A stretch of DNA of 64,000 nucleotides from Lophium mytilinum. Its lineage: Eukaryota. Location of the stretch: positions 202,391 to 266,390 of the forward strand of contig MU004203.1 in assembly GCA_010093605.1 (NCBI GenBank). Direction: 5' to 3'. A program made the position numbers and the translations under genes. Shown in pieces: positions 2,871 through 44,457 of the stretch. The notes under the pieces are model-generated. The model was given only the letters and a program-made list of their open reading frames with translations, had not been told where the DNA came from and made no database searches. Position 1 is the stretch's first letter, and the number at the start of each line of letters is the position of its first letter.

Positions 2871-4137
2871 GTAATAATGCCGTTTAAGGTGGCCCCATTG
2901 CGTAATAGGAACCTTAGTACGATGTTATTTTCTAGACAGCTAAGATTGCATGAAGTCAATTCAGGAGGGTTTGGGAGGTGTTTGGTACCGTTTGAGGTAG
3001 CCCAATTTTCTGACGGGAATCTTGGGACGATGGATTGTTCCGGACAGTTCGGCCCTGACAAAGTCGAATCCCGAGGGTTTGAGACGCGCTTGCTACCGTC
3101 TGAGGTGGCTTGAAAGGGTCAGAATCTGCGAGCTACAATGTTAGAAGCGTGGATTTGAAGCGTTTTGTCATTTAAATAACGTCGCAGGAGGTCCCCTGCT
3201 TAACTGACTTGAAAGGGAATGCAATGTAAATGTCGGCAGCGCCTAGATCTTCACATACTGTTTCGGGGCGTTTTGGTAGATGGCTGACACCGTTTGATGC
3301 TCTTCAGAAAAGCGAATGGCGTAAAACGAAATGTTAACGTTCGGGGGCCCTAAACCTCATGGGGGTGATTTGCGGCATTTTGAGACGCCGTTAGCGTCGT
3401 TTGAAGGCCTTTAGCTAGTTGAGAAGATAAAAGATTCAATATAATGCGTCTAAAGCCTTGTATAGAGCGAGCGGTTTTATGAAGTCTTGAAAGGTAACTG
3501 GTAATGTTTGAGGTCCTTGAAAAGGGCTGGACATAGACGACACGATGTCATGGTTTGGAGGTCTAATATCTTATATGGTCGATTGGGGAGGGGTTGAAGA
3601 GTGGATGACGGCGTTTGAGAGACTCCAGTCGGGTGAATAATTGCAGCTATAGTGTGATGGTTTAGAGACCGTGAATTACGAGGGTGCCGATGGGCGGCAC
3701 AAATTAATAAGAATCCAAGGTGTACATGATAGATTTAGAAGCTCGTCATAGCCAGTCGAACTATCTCAAGCCGCGGTATCGGAACAGTAAAATGAATAGC
3801 AAGGGCGTAGGATGTTAAGTATGGTGTCGAGGGATAGTTTCTGTTGTATACGATACTAGGCTATTAAGTCTGGGCACCCGGAGTCATTGCTTGTCGGCTC
3901 CCATCTTGCTCGTTTGACACTGCTGAGATAGGTGGCGCAGCTGACTAGGCGCCAATGAATTAAGGAGCAGTCTGATATTCACTGGCTGGAATTTGTCATC
4001 ATGCTTAGATGTGTAAGACCTCATGGAGTAACCCCAAGCAGTGGTGTATAAATGCGCATAGACTCCTGGCTTGTCCCTGTAAAATGGAACATCTTTCGTA
4101 CTAACATTATACCGACGTATGAGACCATCCGACATGT

Positions 4138-10150: not shown

Positions 10151-10340
10151 TCTAGCTCAGCAACGACCATCATTGCGATGTTGTATCTGCCACAATCTCG
10201 GTTACATGACTCAATTTGTTGAGCTGGGCAACTAGTAGCACCAAAGATGTCACACGGCGTGGCAAAAAAAGTACAACCATATTCCCGGACAAAGCCAAGA
10301 CTACGAATTCCACTCAGCCGTTTCAGCGCTTGACTTCGCA

Positions 10341-12684
10341 ATGGACAAGACGGAAGACCTCGCGCCGGCGACGCCTAAACCAGAGGATGGATCTTTCGAT
10401 ATGGAGGACTCGGAGTCCATGATGCTTGATGATGATCTCCCCTTTCAAGACCGGCGGTATGAACCCAATTTTATCGATGGCGTCGAGGACATTGAGGACT
10501 ATTGTCTGGGTGGCTTCTTTCCCGTGCATCTCGGGGACAGACTTGGAGACAAAGATCGGTATCGGGTCGTCCACAAGCTTGGTAGTGGCGGGTTGGCTAC
10601 CGTGTGGCTTTGCCGGGATCTTGAGACGGAAAAGTATGTTGCTTTGAAGATCATCATTGCCGACCAGTCTCGGGAAGACGGTCCTGACTTGAAACTATCG
10701 AAGCTTGGCAATGCTGGAATTGGAGAGCTCGCTTTACCACTGGCACACTTCTGGGTTGAAGGGCCGAATGGTCGGCATCTCTGCTTGGTTCTCCCTGTCT
10801 TTGGTCCCCGAGTGGATGACATTTGGGAACGGTTTGACAATCCTGGCGAAGCCTTGAGATCCATCGCAATGCAAGCCACAAGGGGACTTCACTTTCTTCA
10901 TAGCAATGGCTTATGCCATGGTGGTTAGCACTTCATCCTTATTCTATATGTCACGGAACAAGGAGCTGTAGGCCGTGTACGTGATGTATTGGATGAATGA
11001 TGATTGATTTGTCGAAGAGAGAGAGGTCTGGAGGAAGGTGAGGCTATATACAAGAGGTAACACGTGCCTGCCGTAGCCCTCACCGCTACTCCCTGACAGT
11101 TGCCGCCCCAAAGAATAGCAGGCGTCCCCGTCTGCTGCCCATCAAAACAAAAAGAAAACAGGGAAAGGGGAAGTAGGTGGCGTAGAGGTGAAAGAGCTGT
11201 ACAGGCTAGACAAGGCGTACATGGTGTGCTGATAGAGTGGTGATAGAGGAATTCGCTGTTGACGTGCTATTGATAATGCCGAAGTTGTTCAAGGAGGCGT
11301 TGTTTAAGGAGGCGTTGTTTAAGGAAGCGTTGTTCGAGGCGTACAAATAGGCGATGTTGATGGTGATGGCAATGTAGATGGCGATGGCGATGCCGATGCC
11401 GATGGCAATAGGTCGGGAGAGGTCGTTCGCAGTGCTGCTATAGAACAAAGCGTACGAGGAGTAGGAAAGAGGAAGCAAAAAAGGGGGTGGTCGATAGAGA
11501 ATCGTCCGCGGCGCTGCTGTAGAACGGAGCGTACGAGAGGTAGACAATACTGCTGTAGAGCAAGGTCTCGGGAGAGTAGTTAGGTGTGTAGTGGTCGATA
11601 GAGAATCGTCCGCGGCGCTGCTGTAGAACGGAGGGTACGAGAGGTAGACAATACTGCTATAGAGCAAGGTCTTGGGAGAGTGGTTGTACTCAGTGCTGCT
11701 GTAGAACAAAGAGTGTGGGTGGGTGTTTTTTTCCGAGAGATCTTTGGATCGATGCTGCTCAGCTACCAACTGTCACGGAACAAGGAGCTGTAGGCCGTGT
11801 ACGTGATGTATTGGATGAATGATGATTGATTTGTCGAAGAGAGAGAGGTCTGGAGGAAGGTGAGGCTATATACAAGAGGTAACACGTGCCTGCCGTAGCC
11901 CTCACCGCTACTCCCTGACACTATATCACGGGCGATGTAGCTAACATTATTCCAAGATTTCCGTCCTGCAAATATTTTGCTCAAGATATCTAATTTAGAC
12001 CATCTCAGCGAGGAGCAAGTTGTGGAAGCGCTCGGCAAACCTGAGCTGAAGGACATTCGCACAACGACAGGCGAGGACCCCGAGCCGATGGCCCCGAAGT
12101 ACACTGTAACACCGATATCCTGGGCCGAAGTGGACCGGAAGTATCTAACTAATGAGATTTCGATAATCGATTTCGGTGAATCGTTCGACATCGCAAGCCC
12201 TCCCAAGGAATTGGGTACGCCAACCGCCTACTGCTCGCCTGAAGTCTTATTCGATAGCTCGCCTAATCTGGCAAGCGACCTCTGGGCTCTGGCGTGCACG
12301 ATCTCTGAGATACGCTCCGGCCGGCGCCTTTTCCGCGACTGGGACGGAGATGGCGAAGACCCCAAGTTCCAAATGGTCCAACTGCTAGGGAAGTTTCCTG
12401 AACCTTGGTGGTCTTCTTGGGAAACCCGGGAAAACTGGTTTGACGATGAAGGCAACCCATTTACCACAGAGAGAGGAAATCTCTCCGTTGGGGGTGCGAG
12501 GACGATTGAAGGGTACTTGGCTGAGGGACTTCACTACAAGATTTTGGAGGAACCGAGGGACCTTACGATACCCGCTGAAGAGGGAAGGCTGTTGGCAGAC
12601 CTTCTAGGGCAGCTGTTGAGGTATGACCCCAAGGAGCGGATCACGACTGCAGCTGTGCTAGAGCACTCGTGGTTCAAGATGTAG
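10341..12684 (+). CDS. SRPK-like (CMGC) Ser/Thr protein kinase, 2 exons (10341-10923, 11957-12684)
   Basis: Exon 1 has Y..GGFFPVHLGD, KLGSGGLATVWL, VALKI and GPNGRHLCLV. Splicing GTTAGC(10924)...GCTAAC...AAG(11956) restores the catalytic loop HGDFRPANIL. Exon 2 has IIDFGES, YCSPE, SDLWALAC and YDPKER. Confidence 0.88.
10949..11920 (-). mobile_element. TRIM (terminal-repeat retrotransposon in miniature), non-autonomous LTR element in kinase intron
   Basis: Two apparently identical 150-bp LTRs (10949-11098, 11771-11920) with TGTCA...TGACA ends. 5-bp TSD CTATA (10944-10948, 11921-11925). 672-bp interior. On the minus strand, PBS-like TGGTAGCTG just inside the 5' LTR and G-rich GGGGCGGC before the 3' LTR. 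Confidence 0.93.
11487..11685. repeat. ~95-bp direct repeat (period 104) inside TRIM
   Basis: GTGGTCGATAGAGAATCGTCCGCGGCGCTGCTGTAGAACGGAG... present at 11487 and 11591 with few substitutions. Confidence 0.85.
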
Positions 12685-13381
12685 GACATAGAGCTTGGAA
12701 GAGCTGGGTTCATATAAAGCAGTTATCTAATATACCCTAGTAGTAGGTCTGTGAGCTGAACGTCAACAGGGCTCATATGTTAGTAACTGCAGGGGCACTG
12801 CATGTATCTAGAATTCTTAAAAGTGCAACAGTGGGACAAATGACCATGAGGCAGGTGGATAGGGAAACTCGATATGCAGAGAAATCCATTCCCAAGAACA
12901 GTATGCGCAAGCACATTGTGGTATATACTACGGCTAGAAAGCACTCTTGGAGTGGCGTAGACTGAAATCGTGCGGCGAGAAACCAGACGTAGGGTATAGT
13001 CACATGACTACTCTAGGCCTATACTGCTCTAGCGTCAAGGCTCAGCCTCTCTGCCTCACATCGAAGCATCAACCATCACTCAACCCAGCTCTTCAAGCAA
13101 TATCTATGTCCCTTTCGCGCCGTAGCAACAACGTTGGTTGACCCTCTTGGCAGCCCTTTCGTCTCTCTTCTTTCACTTCTTAGAACGACGCAAAACGAAT
13201 CTCAGCCTTGCCGATATCTATCGTTGCTTTTGTCAGCCTCGCAGCGAGAGATGCTGTCGACGATGATGTTCTGATGTTCTGACGCTACATCCCAACTCCA
13301 TTCATTCTGCCTCTTCAATTCAAATTCTCATTCCGTCTATGTGGTTTCCCTAGTCAGGCACACGAAGGCAAGGCTGTCATC

Positions 13382-15133
13382 ATGCGCCTCATCAACGTCA
13401 AGACCTATGAGATCGAAGAGTTTTTTGGCTCTGATATTCCCAATTACGTCGCATTGTCTCATACATGGCTACCACAGGAAGAACCCTCGTTCCAGGACTG
13501 GGCGAATGCATATCGCAGTGCGAAAACGTGCCCTGACGGCATAGTAGCGGGCATGCGAGTTGTCATGATCGACCTCAACAAAATTCTCGGCTATGAAAAG
13601 ATCCACAACTTCATCTGCGAATCACAAAATCTTGACGGTACATACTGCTGGGCGGACACCGTGTGTATCGACAAATCGAGCAGTGCGGAGTTATCCGAGT
13701 CCATAAACTCCATGTACAAAATTTACAAAAACTGTGAACGTTGTCTTGTCTATCTGCAAGATATCGAGGTTGAGGTTCTTCTAGAGAATGACGATTTTTC
13801 GTTACTTGTTCAATCAAGATGGTTCGCTCGCGGGTGGACCTTGCAGGAGTTGATCGCACCCGAGCATCTCGTGTTTTACGACCGAGAATGGACCTACATC
13901 GGTTCCAAAGAGCGCTACAAAGCTTATTTTCAAGAGGCTACTGGAATTCCATCCGAGGTTCTTCTTAACGCGAACAGTTGGAGGGCGTATAGCGTCGCCG
14001 AGCGGATGTCATGGGCATCGAAGCGAACCACGACTCGTGAGGAAGACATGGCTTACTGTCTTCTAGGTATTCTTGACATCAATATGCCCTTACTCTATGG
14101 AGAAGGCGAAAAGGCTTTTCAGAGACTGCAAGAGGAGATCATCAAAAAATATGACGACGATAGCATTTTCGCATGGAGCTGTCCCCAATCGTCGCGCAGT
14201 ACCTACCGCAGCATATTAGCGAGGTCTCCTTCAGAATTTGCGAACTCGAAAGGAATATCGTTCTTTGGGTCTAAAAACAGCGAGCCATATATGATGACGA
14301 ACAAAGGACTCCAAGCGCATTTTCATGGGTGGGTAGTTCCAGGGATACCGGACGAATTCGACGTCGTGCTAAACTGTTGGAACTCGGATCAAAAAGCTGT
14401 TATAATTCGTCTGCGTAGGCTATCCGCATATATGCCATTCTACGCACGCGTGGACAGCCACTTTAGTCACACGATCGGCGCCAGTCTATCTCAACAAAGC
14501 ATCGTGAAGGTCGAGTCACGAACTGTGTATGTAAGAGAGGAGATCCCTCTCCCTCTCCCAGTACCGCATCGGTCTTCTCGAGCTCGCGGACTATGTTTTC
14601 GATTCAAACCACGCGGTCTATTGGTCAAGAGGATGTGGCGGTTTGTCAGCGCAGGAAATTGGCAATGCGAACAGCCGTTCCAATATCCTACACACCAGAG
14701 ATCGAGGGAGTTCATGGTTGTACTTCCTAAGGATCTCGCCACCCGACGGGGACTCACAATACCGGCGCCACCTCCGGATAAGCCAATCACTTTTTCCATC
14801 AAAGTATTGCTCCGACGCTGGCCAGAAGAGGAGTTCTTTGGCATGCATATAGAGTTCGGTCAATATCAATGGTGTGACTGGGATGGGGACGAGTTAGTCA
14901 GCTTGTGGGCCAGTGTACGACTCGGTGATCTACCAGAGTCCTACGATCCGGATTATGGTCCACCAGAGTTTGTGTCTGATGGGCCACGGTTAGTAAAGCT
15001 TACTCCCACTTTGATTAACGATGACCTATGGTTCTCCACCTCTGTGCCCTGGACAAAGCAGAGTGGTCAGCTTTGTGTCGACAAACTAGTGCATCCTCAG
15101 ATACTTAGGATTGACCGTCGTACTATTGCATAA
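13382..15133 (+). CDS. HET (heterokaryon incompatibility) domain protein
   Basis: Motifs MRLIN...YVALSHTW, WADTVCIDKSSSAELSESINSMY, SRWFARGWTLQELIAP and RMSWASKRTTTREEDMAYCLLG..MPLLYGEG..AFQRLQEEI. Confidence 0.93.
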   Translation: MRLINVKTYEIEEFFGSDIPNYVALSHTWLPQEEPSFQDWANAYRSAKTCPDGIVAGMRVVMIDLNKILGYEKIHNFICESQNLDGTYCWADTVCIDKSSSAELSESINSMYKIYKNCERCLVYLQDIEVEVLLENDDFSLLVQSRWFARGWTLQELIAPEHLVFYDREWTYIGSKERYKAYFQEATGIPSEVLLNANSWRAYSVAERMSWASKRTTTREEDMAYCLLGILDINMPLLYGEGEKAFQRLQEEIIKKYDDDSIFAWSCPQSSRSTYRSILARSPSEFANSKGISFFGSKNSEPYMMTNKGLQAHFHGWVVPGIPDEFDVVLNCWNSDQKAVIIRLRRLSAYMPFYARVDSHFSHTIGASLSQQSIVKVESRTVYVREEIPLPLPVPHRSSRARGLCFRFKPRGLLVKRMWRFVSAGNWQCEQPFQYPTHQRSREFMVVLPKDLATRRGLTIPAPPPDKPITFSIKVLLRRWPEEEFFGMHIEFGQYQWCDWDGDELVSLWASVRLGDLPESYDPDYGPPEFVSDGPRLVKLTPTLINDDLWFSTSVPWTKQSGQLCVDKLVHPQILRIDRRTIA

Positions 15134-22267: not shown

Positions 22268-23334
22268 TCAAGACGATGCCGGGGCAGCGTTTGGATCATT
22301 TGCTTCCTTCGAGGAGCCTTCAGACGGTGTTCCAGCATCACTAGTCCCATTCGCCTCCTTCTTTGGCTCTTCCTTCTTCGAATCGTCCGGCTTTGCGTCG
22401 TCTTTCTTGAGATCGTCCTTCTTCGCGTCGTCCGGTTTTGCGTCGTCTTTTTTCGCATCATCTTGCTTCGAGTCGTCTTTTGGGGTCTCTTTGAGGTCCT
22501 CCTTCTTCTTCGGTGCCTTAGTAGCAGGACTCGCATCCGGATCATCAGCCGGCGGCTGCGAAACCACAAACACCGGCGAAGCAGCTGGAGTACCAACCCC
22601 CGAGACCGCAGGAGCCGGCACAGTAGCTGGCGGCGCAGGAGGCTGTCCCGGCGCGCCCGGTCTCGCCCTCAACGCCGCATTCCCGCCCTCACCAACCCCA
22701 CCCATATACATATCCGCTGTCCTCAAATCAGCATGCATCCCCCCCAAAAAGTCAAAACATATGAAAACTCGCCCTACTTACGATCATTCATAGTATCACT
22801 CCTAACCGCCTTATCATACAACCTCGTCAACCGCGCCACCTCACTCCTCACACTAACATCATCATCAATCGCAATCTCATCATACCCGTGCCACCCCCTA
22901 CTAATCCCAAACCACATCACCTCGCTATTCTCAATCTCATCAACCACTCTATCCATCTCGTCTCTAAACATCCGCGCCCGCATCGGCTGTCCCCGGCTCT
23001 TGAGATATGCGACGACCCCCGCGATGATAGTGTTGAGCACGCCGAAGATCGTGATCAGCACGTGCGAGGACTGGCTGGCGCCGAGCGCGGTCAGGGTCGC
23101 GCCGAAGACGACCTGGGTTAGGAGTAGCGTGTTGGAGAGCGTGGCGGTGAAGACGTAGGTGCGGTTTTGGGTGCGGCGGCGGTGCAGGGCGCGGCCGTAG
23201 AGCGTGCTGGGGATTGGGGAGGGTTTCTTGCCGCGGATGTTGGAGGGTGGCACGCCGACGAGGGTGCAGAATTGGTGGTGGATGCTGTTGGGGTCGTCGG
23301 CTTGGGGGAGGAGGGGGGTGGATTCGTCGGCCAT
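22268..23334 (-). CDS. Fungal SLATT (SMODS/SLOG-associating 2TM effector)-like protein, 2 exons (intron 22717-22781)
   Basis: Two TM segments (LLLTQVVFGATLTALGA; LITIFGVLNTIIAGVVAYLKSRGQPMR), then NDPDMY after splicing, and a KKDDA-repeat tail. Confidence 0.78.
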
Positions 23335-24236
23335 TGCGGCGGGAAAGGTGCGCGAGGATTGGGGAAATTGAAGGGTGGAGAACGCAGATAACGCTGAAAA
23401 TCGCTGGAAGTACAAGAGTAAAGCAATGGCGGGTTGACAATGGAGACGGAAGCTTCAAATTTGAGGCTTAGGTAGCTCTTTCCTTGTGAGAGGATATCCT
23501 GCTCATATAACAAACGACAACGAACCTGAGGGGCAGCGAAGCTCGAGATCAGGTGGGGGCAGATCGTAGCTTTATGCAGGGCGCACGGAAAAGAAACGAT
23601 ATCGACACTAACCTCAATCACTATGATGGCTGACTCGTGAAGTTAGCCCCATATTGGCGGATCGGCTCGCGCGTATCGAGGCAGAGACCAAAAGATGAGT
23701 CGCGGGCATCCTGATGATGCTGAAATATACGGTCTAAACATAGGCAGGAACATTGAAGTGCTATTTTTGTTCTTATTGGTGTGTTGAAGGACCTCTAACG
23801 GCTGTGAAGAGTTGTTGAGAGTTGGCAATGCTTGGTGGCGTTTGGTGGGGCTGGATCAGACACGTGATATAGTGAAATCGAAAAGTGCCTAAAGTGTCGA
23901 TAAAGACACCACATCTTCTGTTATTTCTTGAAATTACAGGTAAGCAGTTCTCTAGTATAGCCAGACACGATCTTAAGGGCGAGTCTCGTTACAGCCGCAC
24001 GTGATCTCGAAACGCGGACGCGCCATGATACGTATCCAGTCAGTGCGAACCTCTCTGCCACCGCTTGAGATTGGCCATCAAAACACGAAATCCCTTCACA
24101 CCACAGTACACAGCTCAAAGGTCTTAATATAACTTCCGAACCATCTCAAGTCATATTACAACAACTACACTCAAATGCTACAAAAGGCTGCTCACAGCCG
24201 GGTATACCCCCCTTACTCCGCCTTCTCCCTCCCCCC

Positions 24237-31584: not shown

Positions 31585-32782
31585 ATGTCTTCCAACAACA
31601 ATAGCTCAACCAACAGAAAGGGCAAGAAGGGTCGCCGGGGCACGAACCGTGAAGGACGCCAGGGCCAGTCATCTCAACAACAGCATGGCCAGCAAGGGCT
31701 CTCAGGAGGCCATATCGTGCAGCCAACTGGCGCTCCGACTGGGTCTTTGAACCCCAATGCGTCAGCCTTCCTGCCGGCGTCTCTGCCGAGAAACCCCTAC
31801 CTCCATCCAAACGACCCACCCATCGTGCCAGCGTCGCTAGTCTCGCAAGGTATGTCAAATGTATCCTAATTAAGCAGTAAAAAGATCATAGTTGAAGACT
31901 TGCTGGCAACCCTACCACCATAGTCATTACTTGTCTAACTTCTATTCAGTGCGACGGACTCCCTCAGTGGCCAATACTCCTAGTGACTCCGATTCAAGCC
32001 CATACGTCCCTGGCCAGGGCCTGCGTTACCGGACTGCCAAACAGCTTCAGCAGGCCAGGACTCCTGCGGCTTCTTCCAGCCAACGACCTACACGCCAAGG
32101 TCCTCAGCAGGGCACCCCGTTGCCACGCAACTGGGAGAACCAAGACCAGAACCAGATTCAGCGACAAGCACAGCCTCCTACTCGCCCGCAGCGTGGCCAG
32201 CAGACGCATGGTCCAACGCAAAGCCCGCAGGAACCTCAAATACCCGTCACTGACCCGCGATACGTCCACGCGTGGGCTCCATCCACCACGTCCGGCGGCA
32301 GTCAGGTCGGAGGCTCCGTAGCCGCAGGAAATGCCACTCCGTCCAACAATCCGCCTCTACAAATGCCCGCCTCGCTCGCAAACCTCTTCAAACCCCCGCC
32401 CTCTGGCACTTCAACGCCCACAAACACCACTCTCAGCCTGCGCCGCTTCCTCGAAGAGCCTGGACGGCTCGTCTATGAACAGCAAATGCCCGCTCTCCGC
32501 CAGCTCATCATGCGCTTCATCACGTACGCGGAGCACGACCCCACCGGTCCGCCGAGAGCAGAGCGGGTGGCGATGCTGCGGGTGTATACGCGGGGTTTGA
32601 GCGATGCGGCGGTGGCGCAGAGGCTGGTGTATGCGGTGAGGGGATGGACGGATGAAGTGGAAGATGCGTTGCTGGTGGAGGTGATTCGGGAGGAGAGGGA
32701 GAAGCTTGGGAGAGAGGGGAGGGAGATGGAGGAAGCGGAGAATGAGAAGCGATTACGGGAGGAGGGGGAGGCTGGGGAGTAG
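31585..32782 (+). CDS. Hypothetical Q/P-rich protein with PAM2-like motif, 2 exons (intron 31850-31949)
   Basis: GTATGT...CTAAC...CAG intron keeps frame (SQ-V-RRTP). SLNPNASAFLP resembles PAM2. Helical, charged C-terminus. Confidence 0.7.
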
Positions 32783-33305
32783 AGCTGGCAAAGGTATGTT
32801 TACCCCTTATATTCGTCGGTTGCTGGGCTTTTAGTAATACGCAGCAGCACAGAGACGCGGCTTTGAGCATCAATAGCTATTGCGCATACTTCCCACGGAT
32901 CTTTGTTTTGGACGCCCTATCCACCTCAGTATCCGCTGCCTCTGATGTTCGGAGAGTTTTGAAACCAATTCTACAGCTATGGCCAGCCATGCTATCTACC
33001 GCCACCTCTGTTTCTACCTCTCCACTGGGATAGAAGGCCTATACCATCGCTCCTCCGCATGGCCCTTGTCCAAACCCATCCTTGCCGGGGTATTGGTATG
33101 GTTCCCTGGTTCGATTACTTGCTTTTTTGTTTTTTGATTGTAATAATCTCTTGTTCCCCTTTCCTGTAGTAGCCTAGCGTTTTGGTTATGTAGTAAGAGC
33201 GAACAGGAAGAAATGGTAATTAGTATGGCTTGTATGTTAAAGAATCGATATTAGATAATCCAGTCAGAGGAGGCTTGTGCGCTTGATAAGCTAAGCAAAT
33301 ACCGT

Positions 33306-33799
33306 ATTTGTCGGGTGCAAAACAGCACGGAATCCTTGGCACAACTCTCTGCCACACTAAAATAATTCTTAGGAATACCAACTATAAGATTTATTAATAG
33401 AATTAACTCTAAAAACTAATAAAGTATAGGTATAAGCTACTAGAGTATATTACCTAGGCTTTCCCTTCTATTAATTATTTTTAAGGGCGTAATTCTAGTT
33501 ATAGTAAGAAGATATAATAGGTGCCGCCCGCGGAAGATACCGCCCCCTGCTGCCCTATATTGCACCCCTGCTATACCCCTGCCGCCCGCCTTTTCTATAC
33601 CTTTCTTTACTAGAAATAACTTCTCTTCCTATAAATATTTAGAGCTTATACTTTTAAGATAAAGTAGGTAGTATATAAAGTAGCTTCTAGAGAAGTTTAA
33701 AGGTAATAACTCTATATTTATACCTTTTAGTTGTTAGAAAATGTGTAGTGTGGCAGAGAGTTTTGCCAAGGAATCCGTGCTGTTTTGCACCCGACAAAT
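33306..33799. mobile_element. Non-autonomous TIR element (MITE), ATTTGTCG...CGACAAAT family copy 1
   Basis: Near-perfect inverted repeat 33302-33359 / 33746-33803 (55/58). RIP-like AT-rich interior. Termini similar to the 40208-43974 element. Confidence 0.9.
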
Positions 33800-34124
33800 G
33801 CGGGGGCACGTACAGAAGCTCGCAAGTGCCGCTAAAATACTATTTGCCCAAATATACCGTTCTTCAATCTTCAACTGACTCTCGTCCCAGAAAGTCCGCC
33901 ATTGACCAGGTCGTTATTTCTAGAAAAGGCGAAGATGATGAGCTATAAGGACCATGAATGGCCCCTGTGGCGCGGATGCATCGGGGCAGTGTGTCAAATG
34001 GAATGCTCTTACGCGCCGCCAAGGCCTGTGCCACCTTGCAGCTAACACCTTTTCTTCCCGCGCCGACCTGATCTCTCATAACAATGAACGCAGATCAGTA
34101 GATCCATTCACGTATCGCTCGATC

Positions 34125-36380
34125 ATGGCTTCAAATACACACCGCAATGGTCATTCGCCGACAAGCGGAGTGGATCCGGAGCGTACAGTCGGAAAGTACA
34201 GTAGCCAGCGTACAGTGGGTCTCGTACAGTCACCTGCACGCGTTTATTGTATCATGTCTACGTATATCAGGTCCCCCACCGCTTACCTTGTCACGCCGTG
34301 CGTGTATTATATCACGGTCTTAATCTTTTAAAACCTATAAAGCCTTGTACGCCTAGCATATACGCCTATTACATACGTCTATTAGGTTATTTCCCCTTGT
34401 TTGCCTCCTTAACCTTCCTAGCCCGCGCACCTCCGAGGACTAGGCAGGCTACAACTCCGGGGAAAGGTAAGGAAAACAAGGCTGATAAGTTGAGTGTTTC
34501 TAAGCGGCGGCGACCGTTAATTTCGCATACTAATAAGGCCCAGGCGCAGCCTGTATGAAAGTCTTAGAAGGCTAAGGAGTTAAAGAAAGGTAGTAAAAAG
34601 GTGATTTTTAAGGTTGTGATAATATATACACGCGACGTGATAAAAGGAACTGAATGGAATATAATATACGCGCGGCGTGATACAATAAACGCCTGCGGTG
34701 ACTGTACGAGACCCACTGTACGCTGGCTACTGTACTTTCCGACTGTACGCTCCGGATCCACTCCGGCCGACAAGGCTTCTCACAATACCAAACGAACTTC
34801 TCCTCGAAATAGCTTCCTCGCTCCGCCTCCCAGATCTCAGGCGCCTCAGTAGGGTCAATTGCCAGCTTTATTTCTTTACCAACGACTACCTAGCTCGATA
34901 TCGGTATAATTCCGGACTTGTCGCTCTGCCAAATGAAATCATACTCGAAATCGTGCAGCACCTGGGACGTCAGAAAGATCGTAGTAATCTCGCGCGAGCA
35001 AGCCAGAGGTTTTATCCACTCATCATGCACTACATAGTTCGTCACGACGTTCGACACGGCGGAAGCAGTCTGCTGAATTATGCAGCCAAGAAGAACCTTG
35101 GGGGAATGGCGCGCAATATCCTACATATAGGGGGGGACGTAAATACTCAACGTGGATGTCGAGTGGGTTTCGCGAAGAGGCAGCCAACCCCACTCGTGAC
35201 TGCAGCCTCACACGGACATAAAAAGATGGTCAGGATACTTCTGAAAACTGGCGCCAGTCATTTCGTTGATGGGATGCGGGTTCCGCTTGCGGTAGCCATA
35301 TCCAACCGACATGAGAATGTGGCTTTGATACTTTCCCAAGAGCTCGACTTCGGCGACATGTTTCTTACAAAGACAGGGCAAATGGTGTTCCAGATGGGTT
35401 GCGAGATGAAGCTTGTAAACTTAGTCTGCCACTATCTTGAACGGGGATCACACTGCGCGGAGAGTGTGAATGCCCCAAGATTGCATCCCCGCAGTACCGC
35501 CCTATACCGAACTCTCTTAAAGGATGCCAGCAAGGATATCCTTCTCAAGAGGGAGTTGCATGCCAATGCTTACCAGATTGTATTGATGCTCCTGCAGCAC
35601 GGCGCAAGTCCTGATATTCGCATTGGGGCTACGCGTTCACCACCCCTCACTGCCCGGGACATTGCCTCTAAGCACCCAGATCCACGGGTGAGGAACCTGC
35701 TTTTGAAAGCAACGCCTGCGACGGAATCTAAGGGGTCCCCACTGATTGGAAGACCTTGGATCTCGTTCAAAGATGGCCCCGTCGCATCTTACAACCCCTA
35801 TGCGGAAGCGTCAGTGTTTGAAAACAGCTGCTATGCTACATTGTGGGATTTCCTTGAAAGGCCGAATGTCGAAATTCCCCCTTTGATGGAAGAGGATGGA
35901 ACTGAAGATTGCATATTGGACGCTTCAGAGATTGCAAGCTTGGTGGATGGAGGAATGCGCGGTCTCAAAACGAAGCTGGAATCTATAGGGCCTCCTCCTT
36001 TATCGTTCTTCCCGCAACTTGGTAATGCGAAAGCGACTGAGCAGCAAGCTGCTAATGCTTTTTGGGCCAAGATACCGGTCCGGGCACGCTCAGGCGCGGC
36101 CTTGCTTCAAACGCCTAGCATGAGTGGCATGGGTGCTATTTCAAAGAATGTGAAGCGGTTGGAGGAGCCGGCAGAGACAGATCCCTTTCCACAACTGGGA
36201 CGACCAGGCCCAACGTCAAATGATACCGGAGAGGATTTCTGGGCCCGTTTCCCAAAGAATAAGGGTTTTCAAAGGATGAGTGAAAGTCAACAAACCCCTC
36301 CACACGAAGAAGGGAATGGCATGAATCGGTCTTTTCACAAATCGTCGAAGAAAAAGAAATGGGAGCCACTCCTGCTTTGA
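34125..36380 (+). pseudogene. Tandem F-box + ankyrin-repeat protein, interrupted in codon 14 by a Mutator-type MITE
   Basis: Removing 34166-34774 restores MASNTHRNGHSPTRLLTIPNELLLEIA. Second F-box-like motif LVALPNEIILEIV. Ankyrin motifs SLLNYAAKK, TPLVTAASHGH, PLAVAISNRH and LLQHGASPD. Confidence 0.85.
34166..34765. mobile_element. Mutator (MULE)-type MITE, 600 bp
   Basis: Long TIRs beginning CGGAGTGGATCCGGAGCGTACAGTC (near-perfect ~70 bp, degenerate to ~150 bp) with four GTACAGT sub-repeats. Perfect 9-bp TSD GCCGACAAG (34157-34165, 34766-34774). Confidence 0.93.
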
Positions 36381-37108
36381 AGGTACCGCCCCATGTCACT
36401 TGTACTTCGAACAAGCAAAAGCAAGGAGCGATGGGAGTTGAGTAATAAACCCTGATGCGCATAGCACAAGAGGGCAACAAAGGAATCGGGGGTCAAATTG
36501 CACGAAGGAAGAAACTTCTATAGTCTGAGGGATTCCTACCTGCTTCTCTCCTTCGTACTCAGCTCACTTACTGAATCAACCTTGACGCCTAAAACGTAAA
36601 AGCTAGTAAACGGCTACATTTATTATACTTATAAACCATCAAGATACCCTTACAGATGTTTCATACTTAATCTGCTATCATTAGATGAAAACTAGGATTC
36701 ATGACCGTTTCATCTTCACACGTGCACTAGTCAACATGAGAATATATATTACACTATCACGTGACACCTCTCCCTTTTTCCATCACTTAGAACCAACGTC
36801 TGCTCTGGGTATCTAGAATACAACTCCCTTCTTAGGCCTTAGCTAGATCCTCCGAGTACATATGATCTCGACAGTAAAAAAACCTCTCCGGCGCTAGTTC
36901 CTCAATTAGGAATACCCCATTCAGCTTCAGCCTTGCACTGCCCCACAGTCTCAGCCTTGTCGGACCACGCAGGAATCCACACCTCTTATACTAGACTGGA
37001 AGCTGCATTAGTCCTGCTGTCGTAACTCCTACAATCATCTCTCTAGGCGGTTTGCGAATGTCCAGCTCCCCAATATACTCGATCAGAGCTCTCTATCACT
37101 TCCACAAC

Positions 37109-37612
37109 ATGGCAAACGCCATCATCCGGCCCCCAAGTCACTTATACCACTACATCAACAAGGCTGGCTACGGCAGCATCATTGCCTCACAGAAACCTCG
37201 AGCTTCTACCATTACGGGAGTGAGGAACACACATTACGGCAAAGGCGTATATTTCGCGTCAATAATTCCTCTCGACATACCCATTCTCGGCACCTACAAC
37301 TCGATCGAGCATATCTTCGGAAGCGTGAGTGTGTACGCCGTCGAGCATATGGCATACTATGTCGAAATAGAAGTGGACCCAGAGTGGTATGTTGCCGACG
37401 CTTTCGATCCCAAGCATGGGGTGGTGCAGGACATTTGGTTGGCCCCGGACTGGGCAGGAGAGGATGGGGAGCTTAGTATCCAGGGCCGGATTTACACGCA
37501 TGGGAAGACGACGATTGGATACGATTTAGATTGTATAGAGGATCAAACTAGAGCTGCGAATGATTATGCGTATTGTTTGGCGCAAAAGCGTTCCTATGAA
37601 GTCCACATGTAG
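37109..37612 (+). CDS. Tox-ART-HYD1-like ADP-ribosyltransferase-fold protein
   Basis: LYHYINKAGYGSIIAS...RAS...HYGKGVYFASIIP...YYVEIEVD matches the LYHYT..G...I..S...S...YG.GVY.T..P signature of HYD1-type ARTs. Intronless. Confidence 0.65.
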   Translation: MANAIIRPPSHLYHYINKAGYGSIIASQKPRASTITGVRNTHYGKGVYFASIIPLDIPILGTYNSIEHIFGSVSVYAVEHMAYYVEIEVDPEWYVADAFDPKHGVVQDIWLAPDWAGEDGELSIQGRIYTHGKTTIGYDLDCIEDQTRAANDYAYCLAQKRSYEVHM

Positions 37613-39808
37613 AAGGACGGGTTAAGTGCTTTATGTTGCCAGACTTGATGTGTTTACAGAGAAGGAATGTACGGCATTGATTAGGGTTGATCTCCAATCG
37701 GATCTTGGCCAGCCAACAAGCAGGAATAGAATCGTGTTGCTTTTCATCATTATTCACATTCTTTTACATCTTTACTACACTCGCTTGCACCATCAGCTTC
37801 GGGTTTTCGCACGCTGCAAAGCCGGTGTCCCGCATCCGCTCTTTCGTTGTTGATTGGTATGGCTGCATCACGTTACGGGGTGCTACTGGTATATGCAGCT
37901 GTGGTTTATCGACGCGTTCTGAATGGCCACCATTCGACCAATCCTAACCGCCCCAGGGGACGATAACGAATTTTTAAAACCCCCTGTCTCGTGTTGCGCC
38001 TTTTGCCATCAAATAAGCTTCCGCAGCACTGCTTTCCGCGCATGATGTGCTGGCGCTTAGGGACTGCGGTGAGATCGCTGCGGTAGGGCCCCCTGCTGCC
38101 GGGCTAGTGAATGTCGGTGCCTAGCATCAACGCCTTTTAACCGCTCTTTCATGGCGTAATATCTTCTCCTTGACCGGAACGAACAGGGGTCTGAGACGGA
38201 CCTATCACATATTCAAGGGATTTCAAAGGGCGGCGACGCAGTTCTCCGAATGCGTGAAGATGCAATGAAGGCTACTGCTCGACTGAAGAGAGACGAGGAG
38301 GGATACGATGTGCCTTATGTCTTAAAGACCAGAGGGGTTGGCTCTTCGATCCAGGCCTCCGACTATACTGAATGCACCAGGAAACATCACCGCTTATGCT
38401 CCTACTTTGAAAATGGTGAATTGAATGTCTTTCTCAGCCTTGCCCTCTCCGTCTCCCTCCTCGTCCACCTGGCGTCCAGTAGTATCAAGTTGTTGCTAGC
38501 GGGACTTTTTGTCCTTCTCGCGATCCTCGTATTTGCAATTTGCGTTGCCCGTACAGCCGTGCCACTGCTACGCAATGCACTCTTGGGATTTCTACAGGGA
38601 CAATGGGCTGAGTTCAAAGCAATTCTGCGTCAAACAGCTACATCGAGCTGTATATAATTTCCTGATGGACCTACTTCGACCACTCATCAAAAAGGTTCGA
38701 CTTATATTCACGGGCGAGGATGGTCCGTACGAGGACGACATTTACACAAGTATATTACCTACAAATACTCACTCGCCAAATTGTAATATTCCCTGAGAGA
38801 AAAGCCCCAAAAAAGCTGTCATGATCGTCTCCTTCCCTTATGGCATGTCCTACTCCGCAATGAAAGCTACACTTAGACTACCGCTCCCCGACTCACATTT
38901 CATAGACTAGTAAAGCGACCAAAAGTCAAACATACCTCCCCTAATTCCTCCGACAATCTCGATCCGGCACTACACTCTCTGAATCGTCCCCCTCCGAGCA
39001 TGGGACGACCCGACTAAAATCCTTGCACAACGATTTCACAACAGGAAGTTTTGGGAGCTGATTGGACCCAGTGTCCGGCCGAAGGAAGGCGAGTGCGTGA
39101 GATTGAACGCCGAGAAAATTGAGAGTATCGATGGCATAGCGAAAGACGCGATTGTGTCGTATAGTAATGAATACGTGCTGGAACAATGAAACGCCTAAAT
39201 TACGCGTCTTCGTAGGAACGACTCCATTGCTACGAACTCTCTATAGTGTCCGTTAAACATATTTCACTGAAGTTGAGTCCAACTGCCTTACCTACGACTA
39301 TTCATGGCAATCATTTCCATGACCACAAGTGCAAAAGTCCCTCACTCCCAAAGTCTGCCAGTATTCAAACGCTTCGCACGCGCATTTCGGTGGTGGGCTG
39401 ATAGTTCCTACGAGGCATTTGCCCTTGTTTCGGTTCATATCTTTGTCTTTTCGTGGCTTTATGAACAATCTATGAATAAGGTGTGCGGGGAGATTGATTT
39501 TGATTTGATTGATAATGGCTGTAATTGTGGTAGGCTAACAAAACTATTGTTGAGGGGGATGGAGCTTTTATCTCATTCAGCCTGAATTGCAGCCTGCCTA
39601 CATGCCACGTCAAGGCTCGTCGGGCGTAATGAGACACCCAAAAAAGGGCGCACAAGGCGCTTTGATTCGACAAGGTGTGATGCGGAGTTCGCTGGCAACG
39701 CTGCAACCTATGGCAACAGATACGATTCGGGGCAGGGTAACATTGGCTTCTAGGCCTCTTAAGATGTCGCAGACCAGTCGTCGATTTGAGCCCAGATCCA
39801 GCCACCTG

Positions 39809-39913
39809 ATGGACGGGCTCAGTGCCGCTGCCAGCATCATTGCTGTGGTGCAGCTAACCAGCAGCGTTATCTCATATTTGCACGACGTCAAGGACGCCCC
39901 AAAAGGAATGTGA
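39809..39913 (+). pseudogene. Truncated N-terminal HeLo-like/SesA (fungal NLR/STAND N-term) fragment
   Basis: MDGLSAAASIIAVVQLTSSVISYLHDVKDAPK is the canonical start of fungal NACHT-ankyrin/WD proteins. It stops after 34 codons, with no NACHT downstream. Confidence 0.7.
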
Positions 39914-40617
39914 TAAGTGTATGATCTACTCGACACCGGCAGGGTCGACGCAGACTCGAAGGACAATGACGGCCGTTGTATGAGCCGTCTGATGGTAAAC
40001 AAGTCGACAGAGAGATTGGCCGTAGAGGGGGTGCTGCAGTGACTGCAGAAACTACAAAGATTTGCGTAGTCATCCCATACCGCAGCTACTGAAGTGCGCT
40101 AAACTCTAATGCTGAGATACACCGCAGACCTGTTTCTAGGAATGGAAGTATAAAGAACTGAACAGTGTGGAAAAAAGGTGAAGTAAAAGAGTTACGACGC
40201 CAAAACAATTTGTCGAATTCAAAATAGCACAGAACGCTTGGCGCTTTTTCTCGGCGTTCCTCACCAAAATTTGTATAAGAACAGCAGGGAGCACCACCTA
40301 ATTAAATGCCAGCCTTTCAACGTCCCTTCAATTATATTAAGTAAGGCAGCTTACAATAAAGTAAGGTCATTTATGCGTGCTACAGGGCTATGTACTTTAT
40401 TTTCTAGTATCTAGTAAGTCTCGCAAACGAGATCCTCCGGGCATGTAATACTAAGAATAAACGCGTTGTAGTAAAACCCTCTCTATAATTTATTACTTTA
40501 AATTTATCTACTGCAGGTGCTTGCGCTTCTTCTACTTATAGTAGTCCTTAAGCTTAAGCAATAAGGGGGCTCTTCTTAGGTGCAAAGAAGACGCGTTCCT
40601 AGGTAGGATATGTAGTA

Positions 40618-43600
40618 ATGTCCGTCCATGCGTGGCGCAACAACCCCTGTGCCGCAACAAATTTTGTTATTCAATATCGTACGCTTTATCCCGCGACTCC
40701 ATCAACCTATAAGTAGCCTAATATTAATTTTTAGGCATTTTTCATCAAGAAACGAGCGTGCAGCCAGAAAATTACGCTCTCTTAACCTTGCTATTGATTA
40801 TTACTTCTAGAGCATCCAGATCAGCAATTGCTTTACACCCCTGCTGCACCCTAGAACTCTACAGAGTTTCAAAGCTCGGAGTAGTTTATTTATAGTTCTT
40901 TGATAAAAGAAGGTATCTTGAAGCTACAAAGCTACTAGGCTCTTTATAGGATGCATTCCGGATTTATCCGTGCAAAGGGGCCCGGAAGCAGAAGTTAGCG
41001 CGGGATCGGATCCAGCTAGCTGAAATGTACTGTGTGGCGCTAAGCCTACTTCATAAAATACAGTATTTCTTCTAGAAACGTCTTTGTTCAATCACGTGCT
41101 GGCTATTCGTGCTTTGTTGCCACCTGTCCGTTGCCACCTGTCTATCGTGCCCCCATTCGTGCCCTTCGTGCCTCTGACACGACGATATGGACCGAGCCAG
41201 CCAGGTACTGGCGCAAGGTCTTCCTCCGGATGTACCTAAAACATATGCTGCCCTATCAGAACATGGCGATGTACCTCGGAGCACGCTCTGCTATCGTGCT
41301 CGCGGACGACCCTCAAAGGAGGACAAGGCCCAACAGCAGCAATACCTTACTGTAGAGGAAGAGAAGGCTCTTGTTACTTATTTATTACTAATGTCTGCAC
41401 TTGGGCATCCTGTTCGAATCAAGTATATACCTAGGCTAGCCTTCATCCTCGCCCGCCAGCGTTCCACGACGATCAAGCCCACGACGATCGAGCCCACGAC
41501 GATCAAGCCCCCAAACAAGAACTGGCCTCAAGCATTCGAGAAGCGCCATCCTGAACTTAAAGCGAGGAGAGTCAGGTCGATAGACTGGAAACGTCACGAG
41601 AATAACATATACTTTAAGATCACACACTGGTTCGATGTAGTTGGAAGGGTATTACAGGATTCGGCAGCCGGGACTATCCTGCCAGATAATGTCTATAACA
41701 TGGACGAGACAGGGGTCATGTTAAGTATGCTTGGCTCTGTGAAAGTCCTGATAGATAAGGCCCAGGTGTGGAGCGGATTGGTAAGGTCCGGTGTTGAGCG
41801 GATAGTCCAGTGTATTGAGTGGATCATAGTAACTGATTTTAGGCAAGGACGACCTACGAGACTATAGAGGCGCCGGTGTCAAACGGACAATGGTAACTGC
41901 TGTTGAGTGCATAAGTGCTAGCGGTAGGTCGCTGCTCCCACTTATAATCTGGCCAGCTTCAACCCACCGGAGCAACTGGACCACGTACCCAACCCCTGGA
42001 TGGCATTATGCACACTCCGAAAACGGATATAACGACTCTAAAATTAGCTTGGAGTGGCTTACGCGTGTATTTGACCCCCAAACCAAAGGTCTGGCTAACC
42101 GAAAACCACGGGTACTAATATGTGATGGCTTCGGGACACATGAGACGCTTGAGATATTGGAGTTTTGCCTTGAAAACAACAATATCCTTTGCCGTCTCCC
42201 CTCTCACACCTCTCACAAACTACAGCCCTGTGACGTTGGAGTATTTGCGCCTCTAAAGACAGCCTATCGCGACGAGGTTGAACGACTAAATCGAGGCGGT
42301 GTAGACACAGTGCGCAAAGAGCACTTTACCTCTCTATACAAGCCTGCAAGGGATAGGGCGTTCACCAAAAGGAATATTATAGCAGCGTGGGCTGCATGCG
42401 GCTTGTTTCCGTTCAACCCAGAGAGAGTGCTTCGACATACCCCCAAACCTGCACTTAGTAATGCCGCTGAACTTACTAGTTCCACTAACGAGGTTATGGG
42501 ACAAAACGAAGCACGGCCATCAACGCCAGCAACTCCGGGGACAACAGAGGCTGTGTTATCGTTGCGTAACCTGATTAAAGAGGAGATGAATGACCCAAGC
42601 AAACAGCTGCGCGTACAGAAATACATACAGAAGCTTGCAAGTGCCACCGAAAGATCCTTTGCCAAAAATGCCCTGCTTCAGGATCAGAATCAATCTTTGT
42701 TCGCGGCTAATAACGAAGCCAAAGTTCGCCGATCGACTAAAGCCATAGTCCTAGGTACAGCGAAGGTAATGAGCTATGAGGATCTTGAGGAGGCAAGAAC
42801 AAAGCGTGCTGCAAAGGATGAAGCTAAGGCGAGCAAGGGGAAAGGTAAACGCGGTCGTCCGCGCCTGAACCCTGTGCCAGAGGAAGAGGAGGGAGAGCTG
42901 GAGGCGGAAGCGGAAGCAGGCAAGAGAAAGCGCAGTCGTAAACGCAAGAGTTCTGCACCAGAGTTGGAGGTAGAGGCAGGCTCATTAGTGCTAGAGGCGG
43001 GCTCATCGGTGGTGGGCTCATCGGTAGTGGTGTGCTTATCGATGCCAGAGGCGGGCTCATCGGCGCCACAACCAGGACAGCCATGGAGGGCTCCAGTGGC
43101 ACGGATGTATTAGGAAACTGCTATTATATTAATATTACGCTTAGATTTGTGCAGATTATATGAAAAGAGGTTGAAATGCAGGTGTGACTTCGAGAGTGTT
43201 ATTTCGAGATGTGTTGCTGACTTGAGTTGGAGCATTATCTAAGCGTCTACACCACCCACAACCATGCAAAATGCTTACCTTGATGACATGAGTAAGTTTC
43301 ACTGTGATCATTATGTAAGACTTTGAGGGTCGTTTTGTCCTAGCCGGAACTGGCAATTGCTTCAGCCGGAAGTACCGACCAGGGTGGCGATCTTGCATGA
43401 ATTTGGGTGCGATAGCAGCCACAAGGCTGATAACGACTTTTTAATACGGTATTGAGGCTCTGAAGCTATGATGAGACCATTTTATGAGCATCAGGAGGGA
43501 CAGGAGCTCAAAAACGGTGCTGTGGTGGAGGATTTCTGTTATGCCATGAAACAGGGCTCTCCGCAAATCAGGTGGAAAGGCGAAAACGCTCACGGTTTTT

Positions 43601-43762
43601 TTTGTTATTGGGGGTTCCAAGGTCTGTATAGTGGCCCTAGCACATGACCTGTACAAAATTATAGGAAATATCAACGTTCCCATCGAAAGCGGATTATTTG
43701 AAGTTCATGTACCCCTCCTTTATTGCGGCACGGGGGTTGTTGCGGCACGCATGGATGGACAT
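40618..43762 (+). mobile_element. Tc1/mariner-pogo (Fot1/Pot-like) DNA transposon
   Basis: 44-bp TIRs 40618-40661 / 43719-43762 (ATGTCCGTCCATGCGTG.CGCAACAACCCC.GTGCCGCAA). TA TSD at 40616-40617 and 43763-43764. Encodes a transposase. Confidence 0.93.
41187..43113 (+). CDS. pogo/Fot1-family DDD transposase (two exons; intron ~41755-41842/41847)
   Basis: HTH/CENP-B-like N-terminus. Catalytic motifs VYNMDETG, LICDGFGTH and LQPCDVGVF. The frame switch between GSVKVLI and DDLRDYRGAGVKRTMVT is bridged by an intron-like segment. Confidence 0.85.
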
Positions 43763-44457
43763 TAGGTAGATATTTATTCTAGGGCACTATAGTACTAAAA
43801 ATCCTATAAGATAGCTATATAGCATGCCCGAGAAGCCTCACTTATAATTATTAAGCGGACCTTAAGAGGTTGACATTCAATTAGGTGGTGCTCCCCGTGA
43901 CTCTCATACAAGTTTTGGTGAGGAACGCCGAGAAAAAGCGCCAAGCGTTCTGTGCTATTTTGAATTCGACAAATATTCCGACACGGGGGTTTTGCGCCCG
44001 TCGTTGAGGGACCTTACACGTAATCACCGTCCGCGTCCAGCGCCTCTAATTTCGGCCCGATATGCTAGAGCCATTAGCATACAACATCTCTATACTTCCT
44101 TTCCAACCGTCTTGGGCGTCCAGCGCCTGGCTCAACATGCTAGAGCCGATAGCAAACCTCTTTCCCAAACCGTCTATTCTAAGCTCAGACAAAGAAGTTC
44201 AACAAACCTTTCTCAACGTCGAGCCCGCGACGTCTTTATCCCTTTGTACCCCCAGACCAGCTAGGAGGACAAAAGACCAGGATCTAGAACCAGCTAAATC
44301 ATACTTACCTTCTCTTCCCATCTCGACCAGCGCCACCAGCTTGTCCACTACTCAGAGAGCCTAGTCCAGCCAGACCAACAACAAACCTACCATGCTCACC
44401 TCCCTTACCTTGGCGGCCAGCGCCTTCTAGCTCAGCATTTTCCCACATGCAAATGCC

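Follow-up and report, generated by a model that had tools for sequence, protein, structure and literature searches.

An inverted-repeat transposon family with a probable AT target-site duplication in a filamentous ascomycete, and an unrelated transposon nested in one of its copies

Two elements in a contig of Lophium mytilinum (MU004203.1, assembly GCA_010093605.1) raise the question of what kind of transposon ends in ATTTGTCG...CGACAAAT and is flanked by no conventional target-site duplication (TSD). The elements lie at 33306-33799 (copy 1) and 40208-43974 (copy 2) of a 64-kb window (contig positions 202,391 to 266,390, forward strand), which is the whole stretch of DNA analysed and to which all motif counts, scans of open reading frames (ORFs) and tblastn searches refer. 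Public contigs from runs X1 and X2, which may be the source of this DNA, and from runs X3 and X4, which represent a second organism (organism B), were also compared. The family of terminal inverted repeats (TIRs) with these ends is real, and it is represented in the window only by two non-autonomous copies resembling miniature inverted-repeat transposable elements (MITEs). The best overall explanation, which we regard as somewhat probable, is a non-autonomous cut-and-paste family of low-to-moderate copy number in a filamentous ascomycete, duplicating AT on insertion and moved by an enzyme like that of PlavakaA and the CMCT (CACTA-Mirage-Chapaev-Transib) clade.

The 35-nt motif ATTTGTCGnnTnCAAAAnAGCACnGAAnnCTTGGC has four matches in the window, at 33306 (+), 33799 (-), 40208 (+) and 43974 (-), three of them without mismatches and one with a single mismatch; none was found in 100 dinucleotide-preserving shuffles of the window (mean 0, maximum 0), and no further copy occurs in the window at up to 8 substitutions. 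The four matches are the ends of two inverted-repeat elements, whose left ends are identical at 28 of 35 positions, as the original prediction had read. The parts of the two elements are as follows.

33306..33307 (+): left AT of copy 1, a putative TSD (2 nt are needed between CCGT and GCGG at the empty site)
33308..33797 (+): copy 1, MITE-like, with TTGTCGG...CCGACAA termini (490 bp, GC 0.365, longest frame 72 aa)
33798..33799 (+): right AT of copy 1, a putative TSD (from the sequence and the empty-site reconstruction)
40208..40209 (+): left AT of copy 2, a putative TSD (by analogy with copy 1)
40210..40617 (+): copy 2 shell, left part, non-coding, ending in the TA targeted by an inner element
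43765..43972 (+): copy 2 shell, right part (from arm similarity and contig joints)
43973..43974 (+): right AT of copy 2, a putative TSD (two other source-genome contigs match exactly to 43974 and then diverge)

The arms of copy 1 extend for 54 nt with 2 mismatches; those of copy 2 (40208-40347 and 43835-43974) run to 140 nt, of which the first 62 match perfectly, and have an overall identity of 86%. Without its insert and one TA, the shell of copy 2 measures 616 bp and its longest frame is 67 aa, and both copies have the properties by which MITEs are recognized (short, non-coding, bounded by TIRs and present in several copies). Judging from their sequences, the two copies look young, because no mismatch occurs in the first 62 nt of the copy 2 arms and neither duplication has decayed. 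Outside ATTT/AAAT the flanks differ (ccgt and gcgg for copy 1, aaca and attc for copy 2), and the earlier reading that no TSD of TA or of 3, 5, 8 or 9 bp is present holds, with no direct repeat of any of these kinds at the flanks of either copy. Membership of the outer family in hAT, Mutator or PIF-Harbinger was rejected on the absence of an 8-bp, 9-bp or 3-bp TWA repeat at either copy. AT is present at both ends of both copies, and the junction reads AT-T-TGTCGG in copy 1 and AT-T-TGTCGA in copy 2.

Copy 2 was originally taken as a single element, otherwise different from copy 1; the shared ends of that description stand, but the region 40208-43974 is a composite of a non-coding shell and an unrelated transposon nested within it, which has the following parts.

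40618..43762 (+): inner pogo/Fot1-type transposon of the Tc1/mariner superfamily (3145 bp), with TA on either side (40616-40617 and 43763-43764)
41187..43113 (+): transposase gene of the inner element, in two frames (41178-41867 and 41833-43113)
41752..41839 (+): 88-nt segment interrupting the transposase frame and missing from the organism B copies

Of the 46 positions of the inner inverted repeats (40616-40661 and 43719-43764), among which the TA is counted, 42 agree, giving TIRs of 44 nt with 4 mismatches. Contigs of X1/X2 carry the shell without the inner element; in one of them 9 other letters separate 40617 from 43770, and another joins 40305 to 43816. In organism B, several copies of the interior were found (up to ~99% identical, with 4 differences over 542 nt), the bins of the outer TIRs are essentially without cover, and the match to contigs of 6.5-6.7 kb stops at 43764, beyond which these continue as unlike sequence. 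The inner TIR pair, the TA and the shell-only contigs mean that the DDE_1 transposase cannot classify the ATTTGTCG family, and the original proposal to do so through the transposase of a long copy fails here, the DDE_1 protein belonging to the nested element with its own TIRs and its own TA duplication.

The inner element is an ordinary fungal pogo/Fot1-type transposon with a TA duplication. One transposase frame matches PF03184 (DDE_1) at E 9.3e-30 and the other matches PF03221 (HTH_Tnp_Tc5) at E 0.0019, under the curated cut-off, so that 40618-43762 shows the DDE_1 domain, TA duplication and ~40-50-nt TIRs of the pogo/Fot1 group with a helix-turn-helix (HTH) match that is sub-threshold. Among 8000 candidates scored, 1534 homologues reach E<=1e-10; the 120 homologues listed are ~390-620 aa long, many with PF03184 plus PF03221, and the few that are named come from Curvularia, Exserohilum, Bipolaris, Alternaria, Pyrenophora, Paraphaeosphaeria and Pseudogymnoascus. 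In the window, tblastn at E<=0.01 detected no further copy of the DDE_1 protein. The element resembles Fot1 and pogo in its DDE_1 transposase, CENP-B-type HTH, ~44-nt TIRs and TA duplication, but differs from them in being long at 3145 bp and in having its frame split by the 88-nt segment. Both X3 and X4 show the joint 41751->41840, and deletion of 41752-41839 gives one continuous transposase frame; a canonical GT..AG intron restoring the frame exactly at these borders could not be placed. The segment consists of three ~24-nt repeats and could be either an intron of an unusual kind or an insertion or expansion that disables the gene. Copies of the inner element in organism B are ~96.5-99% identical to it, compared with ~80-84% for the unique stretches that are covered (32536-32671 and 35881-36387), a contrast that, if these stretches are orthologous, is a usual hint of horizontal transposon transfer.

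The outer family is multi-copy in the source genome. The summed contig depth in X1 is 2957 at 40244 and 2094 at 43932, versus ~130 for the neighbouring single-copy flank, and reaches 390-750 within the interior of copy 1 (~3-6x the single-copy flank); summed depth is not copy number, and each arm can be aligned to both ends, so that the values are taken to mean only that the arms number between several and a few tens. A contig of 393 nt is a diverged copy of copy 1 (387 nt of it align, with 47 differences and 8 gaps), two contigs start at 40206 (CAATTTGTCG), and two others match exactly up to 43974 (...CGACAAAT) and then diverge, the next base not being A. Beyond these contigs, a metagenome scan with TTTGTCGNNTNCAAAANAGCAC returned 45 loci, all attributable to chance (at most 29 of 52 positions identical, 18 of them forced, with no extension and no inverted partner), a scan of prokaryote-genome contigs gave 1 chance match in a bacterial metagenome-assembled genome, and a scan of viral contigs for the family termini gave 0 matches. 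A full-text literature search with TIR strings of 12-15 nt found only unrelated primers and similar sequences.

The sequence duplicated by the family can be approached at copy 1, which interrupts a recognizable gene.

33255..33960 (+): sequence interrupted by copy 1, the decayed C-terminal region of a pogo/Fot1-type transposase gene, recognized by homology to 42623-42681

The DNA alignment of the host relic crosses the insertion point of copy 1, and blastn aligns 33808-33866 with 42623-42681 at 76% identity (E 1e-4); at this level, the DNA-level paralogous comparison with the gene of the inner element is too diverged to fix the junction. Paralogous empty sites have been used to establish the TSDs of Spy and ISL2EU elements (PMC4122938, PMC4482050), and a protein-level version of the test was applied here, making use of a stretch conserved at the site (..ALDExSKQRLQRHVQKLASAA.. 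in 120 homologues). The flanks of copy 1 were joined with varying numbers of nucleotides, and each join was scored against a profile built from 100 of the 120 homologue segments, the other 20 having been dropped because a simple pattern missed the anchor or because it lay too near the protein end.

The empty site of copy 1, as reconstructed in this way, holds 2 nt. Joined with AT, the flanks read EEACALDKLSKYRMRGHVQKLASAAKILFAQ and score 41.7 bits, ungapped; the product, EEACALDKLSKYR-M-RGHVQKLASAAKILFAQ, fits the homologue profile, with an R seven residues ahead of KL as in 89 of the 100 homologues and with the junction codon ATG aligned to L (72) or I (17). A 5-nt join scores 38.9 bits and requires a one-residue insertion, and the 8-nt join (ATTTAAAT) scores 35.0 bits, which is 6.7 bits less than the AT join, and requires two inserted residues, with a stop codon among them. 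Joins of 0, 1, 3 or 4 nt score 23.9-27.0 bits, with the frame broken and the right half alone aligning. Two readings had originally been offered, a TSD-less insertion into ATTT^AAAT with GTCG...CGAC termini and a 2-bp AT duplication with TTGTCG termini; the reconstruction favours the second, with termini TTGTCG...CGACAA, and argues against the first as well as against a TA model and against zero duplication. Homology to the transposase relic abuts AT on both sides of copy 1, so that the true termini are not further out, and both longer TSDs and more distant termini were rejected from the flank sequences and the host-relic alignment. Among the joints listed for organism B, none corresponds to an empty site across 33306-33799, and organism B is without cover around copy 2. 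The anatomy of the elements together with the 2-bp AT duplication can be considered highly probable.

The history of the locus might then be reconstructed as follows. A DDE transposase encoded elsewhere in the genome would bind the conserved terminal 35-60 nt and move the elements in trans, excising an element and integrating it at AT, where the dinucleotide target would be cut with a 2-nt stagger and repair would duplicate a single AT. Copy 1 (490 bp) lies in a pogo/Fot1 transposase gene that was dead, and the copy 2 shell (~616 bp) was hit later, at an internal TA, by the unrelated 3145-bp pogo/Fot1-type transposon, whose transposase gene is the only one in the region. The mobilizing enzyme would most likely be of the PlavakaA/CMCT kind. 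PlavakaA elements, which belong to the CMCT clade and are known from Laccaria, Serpula and Coprinopsis, have 2-bp TSDs and TGTCGG...CCGACA termini (PMC12730594); among the consensus starts examined in the supplement of that study, five of six read TGTCGG and one reads TGTCGC. PlavakaA and the present family are alike in the 2-bp TSD, in a terminal TGTCGG...CCGACA hexamer followed by an A-rich stretch, and in their fungal hosts, and the 2-bp TSD expected of a PlavakaA element agrees with the 2 nt required at the empty site of copy 1 and with the AT at all ends. The assignment of the family as PlavakaA-like is tentative and falls a little short of an even chance; PlavakaA-like is the leading superfamily candidate, ahead of ISL2EU-like, Tc1-like and Spy-like. 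The family may represent a variant of an already described kind and not a group that is entirely new. The original statement that the terminus type is unlike those of common fungal superfamilies, and the accompanying suggestion of a possibly undescribed group, are weakened by the TGTCGG...CCGACA termini and 2-bp TSDs of PlavakaA.

Several observations weigh against the interpretation of the family as an AT-duplicating relative of PlavakaA. The empty site is inferred from the protein homologues of a decayed relic at a single site rather than from an orthologous or close paralogous site; a 6-nt indel in such a relic could mimic the 2-nt result, and the homology of the left flank is short (13 residues, worth ~4-5 bits alone). 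Only two complete copies are readable, the other copies being seen as contig summaries rather than as sequence. In PlavakaA, TGT..ACA abuts the TSD, whereas the family has an extra T/A pair after AT, with TGTCGG (copy 1) and TGTCGA (copy 2) sitting one base inside it. The eight PlavakaA junction pairs examined in the supplement of PMC12730594 all have 2-bp TSDs (TA, TT, GT, TT, TA, CA, GT and TA), which are thus variable and in no examined case AT, while the family has AT at every end. The long TIRs of the family (54-62 nt or more) are a further difference. Plavaka was reconstructed, and PlavakaA described, from Agaricomycotina in PMC12730594, whereas the host of the family is an ascomycete. 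The hexamer common to both could be due to chance, and the TIR of copy 1 also fits a Tc1-type motif, that of mimp elements, at 10 of 14 positions. Of the 80 window ORFs of 130 aa or more, the 53 that were scanned contain neither a Plavaka transposase nor any other second transposase, 25 ORFs that overlap others being excluded and the two inner transposase frames being scanned separately. It is possible, although we do not expect it, that the family represents an undescribed, AT-specific, 2-bp-duplicating ascomycete lineage with TTGTCG...CGACAA termini, either as a first ascomycete AT-targeting branch of Plavaka/CMCT or as a fungal counterpart of ISL2EU.

Among the known systems other than PlavakaA, the family could belong to PHIS as an ISL2EU-like group moved by an ISL2EU-type DDE transposase that makes AT duplications, an explanation that we consider unlikely. 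The TSDs of ISL2EU elements are 5'-AT-3' (PMC4482050, PMC4122938), in keeping with the AT that flanks both copies and with the 2 nt in the empty site of copy 1, and fungal PHIS relatives vary in TSD length, with 0, 2 or 3 bp (PMC12730594). The AT duplication is common to ISL2EU and the family; however, the A/AT/T target context and the GG start of ISL2EU are not found at the two copies, nor are its partner genes among the window ORFs scanned. The ISL2EU target is A/AT/T (PMC4482050), whereas here copy 1 has T before its AT and G after it and copy 2 has A on both sides, so that T follows in neither of the two. ISL2EU TIRs usually begin with GG, whereas those of the family begin with TT, and the 25 ISL2EU families from 14 species covered by the survey all come from animals (PMC4482050). 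Additionally, neither a THAP-DDE nor a YqaJ gene is present in the 53 of 80 window ORFs scanned.

A Spy-like, TSD-less insertion into ATTT^AAAT with GTCG...CGAC termini agrees with the presence of ATTT/AAAT in both copies and at four further contig ends, and Spy elements do insert without a TSD at an A/T-rich palindrome, AAA/TTT (PMC4122938). Spy and the family share A/T-only junction bases and lack a conventional TSD, but Spy duplicates nothing whereas the empty site of the family keeps 2 nt, and the ATTTAAAT join that this explanation calls for reaches only 35.0 bits, with a two-residue insertion and a stop, versus 41.7 for AT. The polarity is also reversed, with AAA on the left and TTT on the right in Spy and with ATTT on the left and AAAT on the right in the family. 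The Spy TIR motif GGANNNNG is missing from the family tip, whether this is taken as GTCG or TTGTCG, and Spy is reported from invertebrates (PMC4122938). A Spy-like mechanism is therefore quite improbable.

A Tc1/mariner-type MITE, either impala/mimp-like or pogo-like, whose TA duplication has decayed has frequency in its favour, as no DNA transposons are commoner in fungi than those of Tc1/mariner (PMC5751038). The mimp elements of Fusarium carry the pattern ..CAGTGGG..GCAA[TA]AA (PMC7576743). The 10 of 14 positions at which copy 1 fits this pattern lie in a register that leaves 2 nt for a TSD, and 89 of 200,000 random window positions reach at least 10 matches (4.5e-4), but the comparison was chosen post hoc and copy 2 fits at only 8 of 14. 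Like mimp and impala, the copies are small, non-coding and bounded by TIRs, with similar inner TIR positions (G-T-x-G-G-x-x-G-C-A-A-A-A); unlike the CAGT tip and TA duplication of those elements, they have a TTGT tip and an AT duplication. If the termini are taken as TTTGTCG, one junction per copy reads TA; TA is thus found at 2 of 4 junctions only, approximately the chance level, and the two other contigs that end in ...AAAT continue with a base that is not A. Under a TA model, moreover, the flanks of copy 1 would join with no net extra nucleotide, which breaks the frame and lowers the score to 23.9 bits, against 41.7. A decayed Tc1/mariner-type MITE is for these reasons very unlikely.

Finally, the notion that 40208-43974 is one autonomous element with the DDE_1 transposase as the family's own, for which the position of the gene between the outer TIRs speaks, can hardly be right, given that the inner 44-nt TIR pair with its TA flanks brackets the gene, that source-genome contigs contain the shell without the gene and organism B contains the inner element without the outer TIRs, and that pogo/Fot1 elements duplicate TA, not AT.

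The window contains other features apart from the two copies. Between them lies a non-coding element of 600 bp (34166-34765) whose 69-nt terminal inverted repeats are perfect and whose flanks carry the 9-bp direct repeat GCCGACAAG (34157-34165 and 34766-34774), likewise perfect, which is the signature of a recent insertion of a Mutator-like (MULE) MITE; an F-box/ankyrin ORF (34689-36377) has this element just upstream of it or at its start. Two perfect 150-nt direct repeats (10949-11098 and 11771-11920, spaced by 822 nt), with 42-nt and 95-nt tandem repeats between them, stand between two ORFs that encode the N-terminal half (10239-10925) and the C-terminal half (11941-12681) of a protein kinase domain; the region 10949-11920 could reflect a duplication or the insertion of repeats into an intron, or could be an artefact of assembly. 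A block of ~25% GC (1-3000) stands beside sequence of ~50% GC, and such low GC is typical of old repeats subjected to repeat-induced point mutation in filamentous ascomycetes. ORFs with a SLATT_fungal domain (22777-23454, -; E 4e-34), a HYD1-type ADP-ribosyltransferase domain (36995-37609, +; E 1.6e-5, just above the cut-off) and a HET domain (13283-15130, +; E 5e-13) are candidate fungal allorecognition or conflict genes amid a transposon-rich region.

The length and sequence of the TSD are the main handles for placing orphan MITEs in a transposase superfamily, and an AT-duplicating fungal family would fall outside the routine fungal classes (Tc1/mariner, hAT, MULE and Harbinger). Automated pipelines would mis-annotate such a family, and the nested pogo/Fot1 transposase would lead to the long copy being called Tc1/mariner. 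The practical value of the finding is modest, concerning repeat annotation and transposon classification rather than a new biological principle. If the link to PlavakaA is true, the recently delineated CMCT lineage would have a wider host range and an additional target preference; if it is false, the family would mark an unknown transposase.

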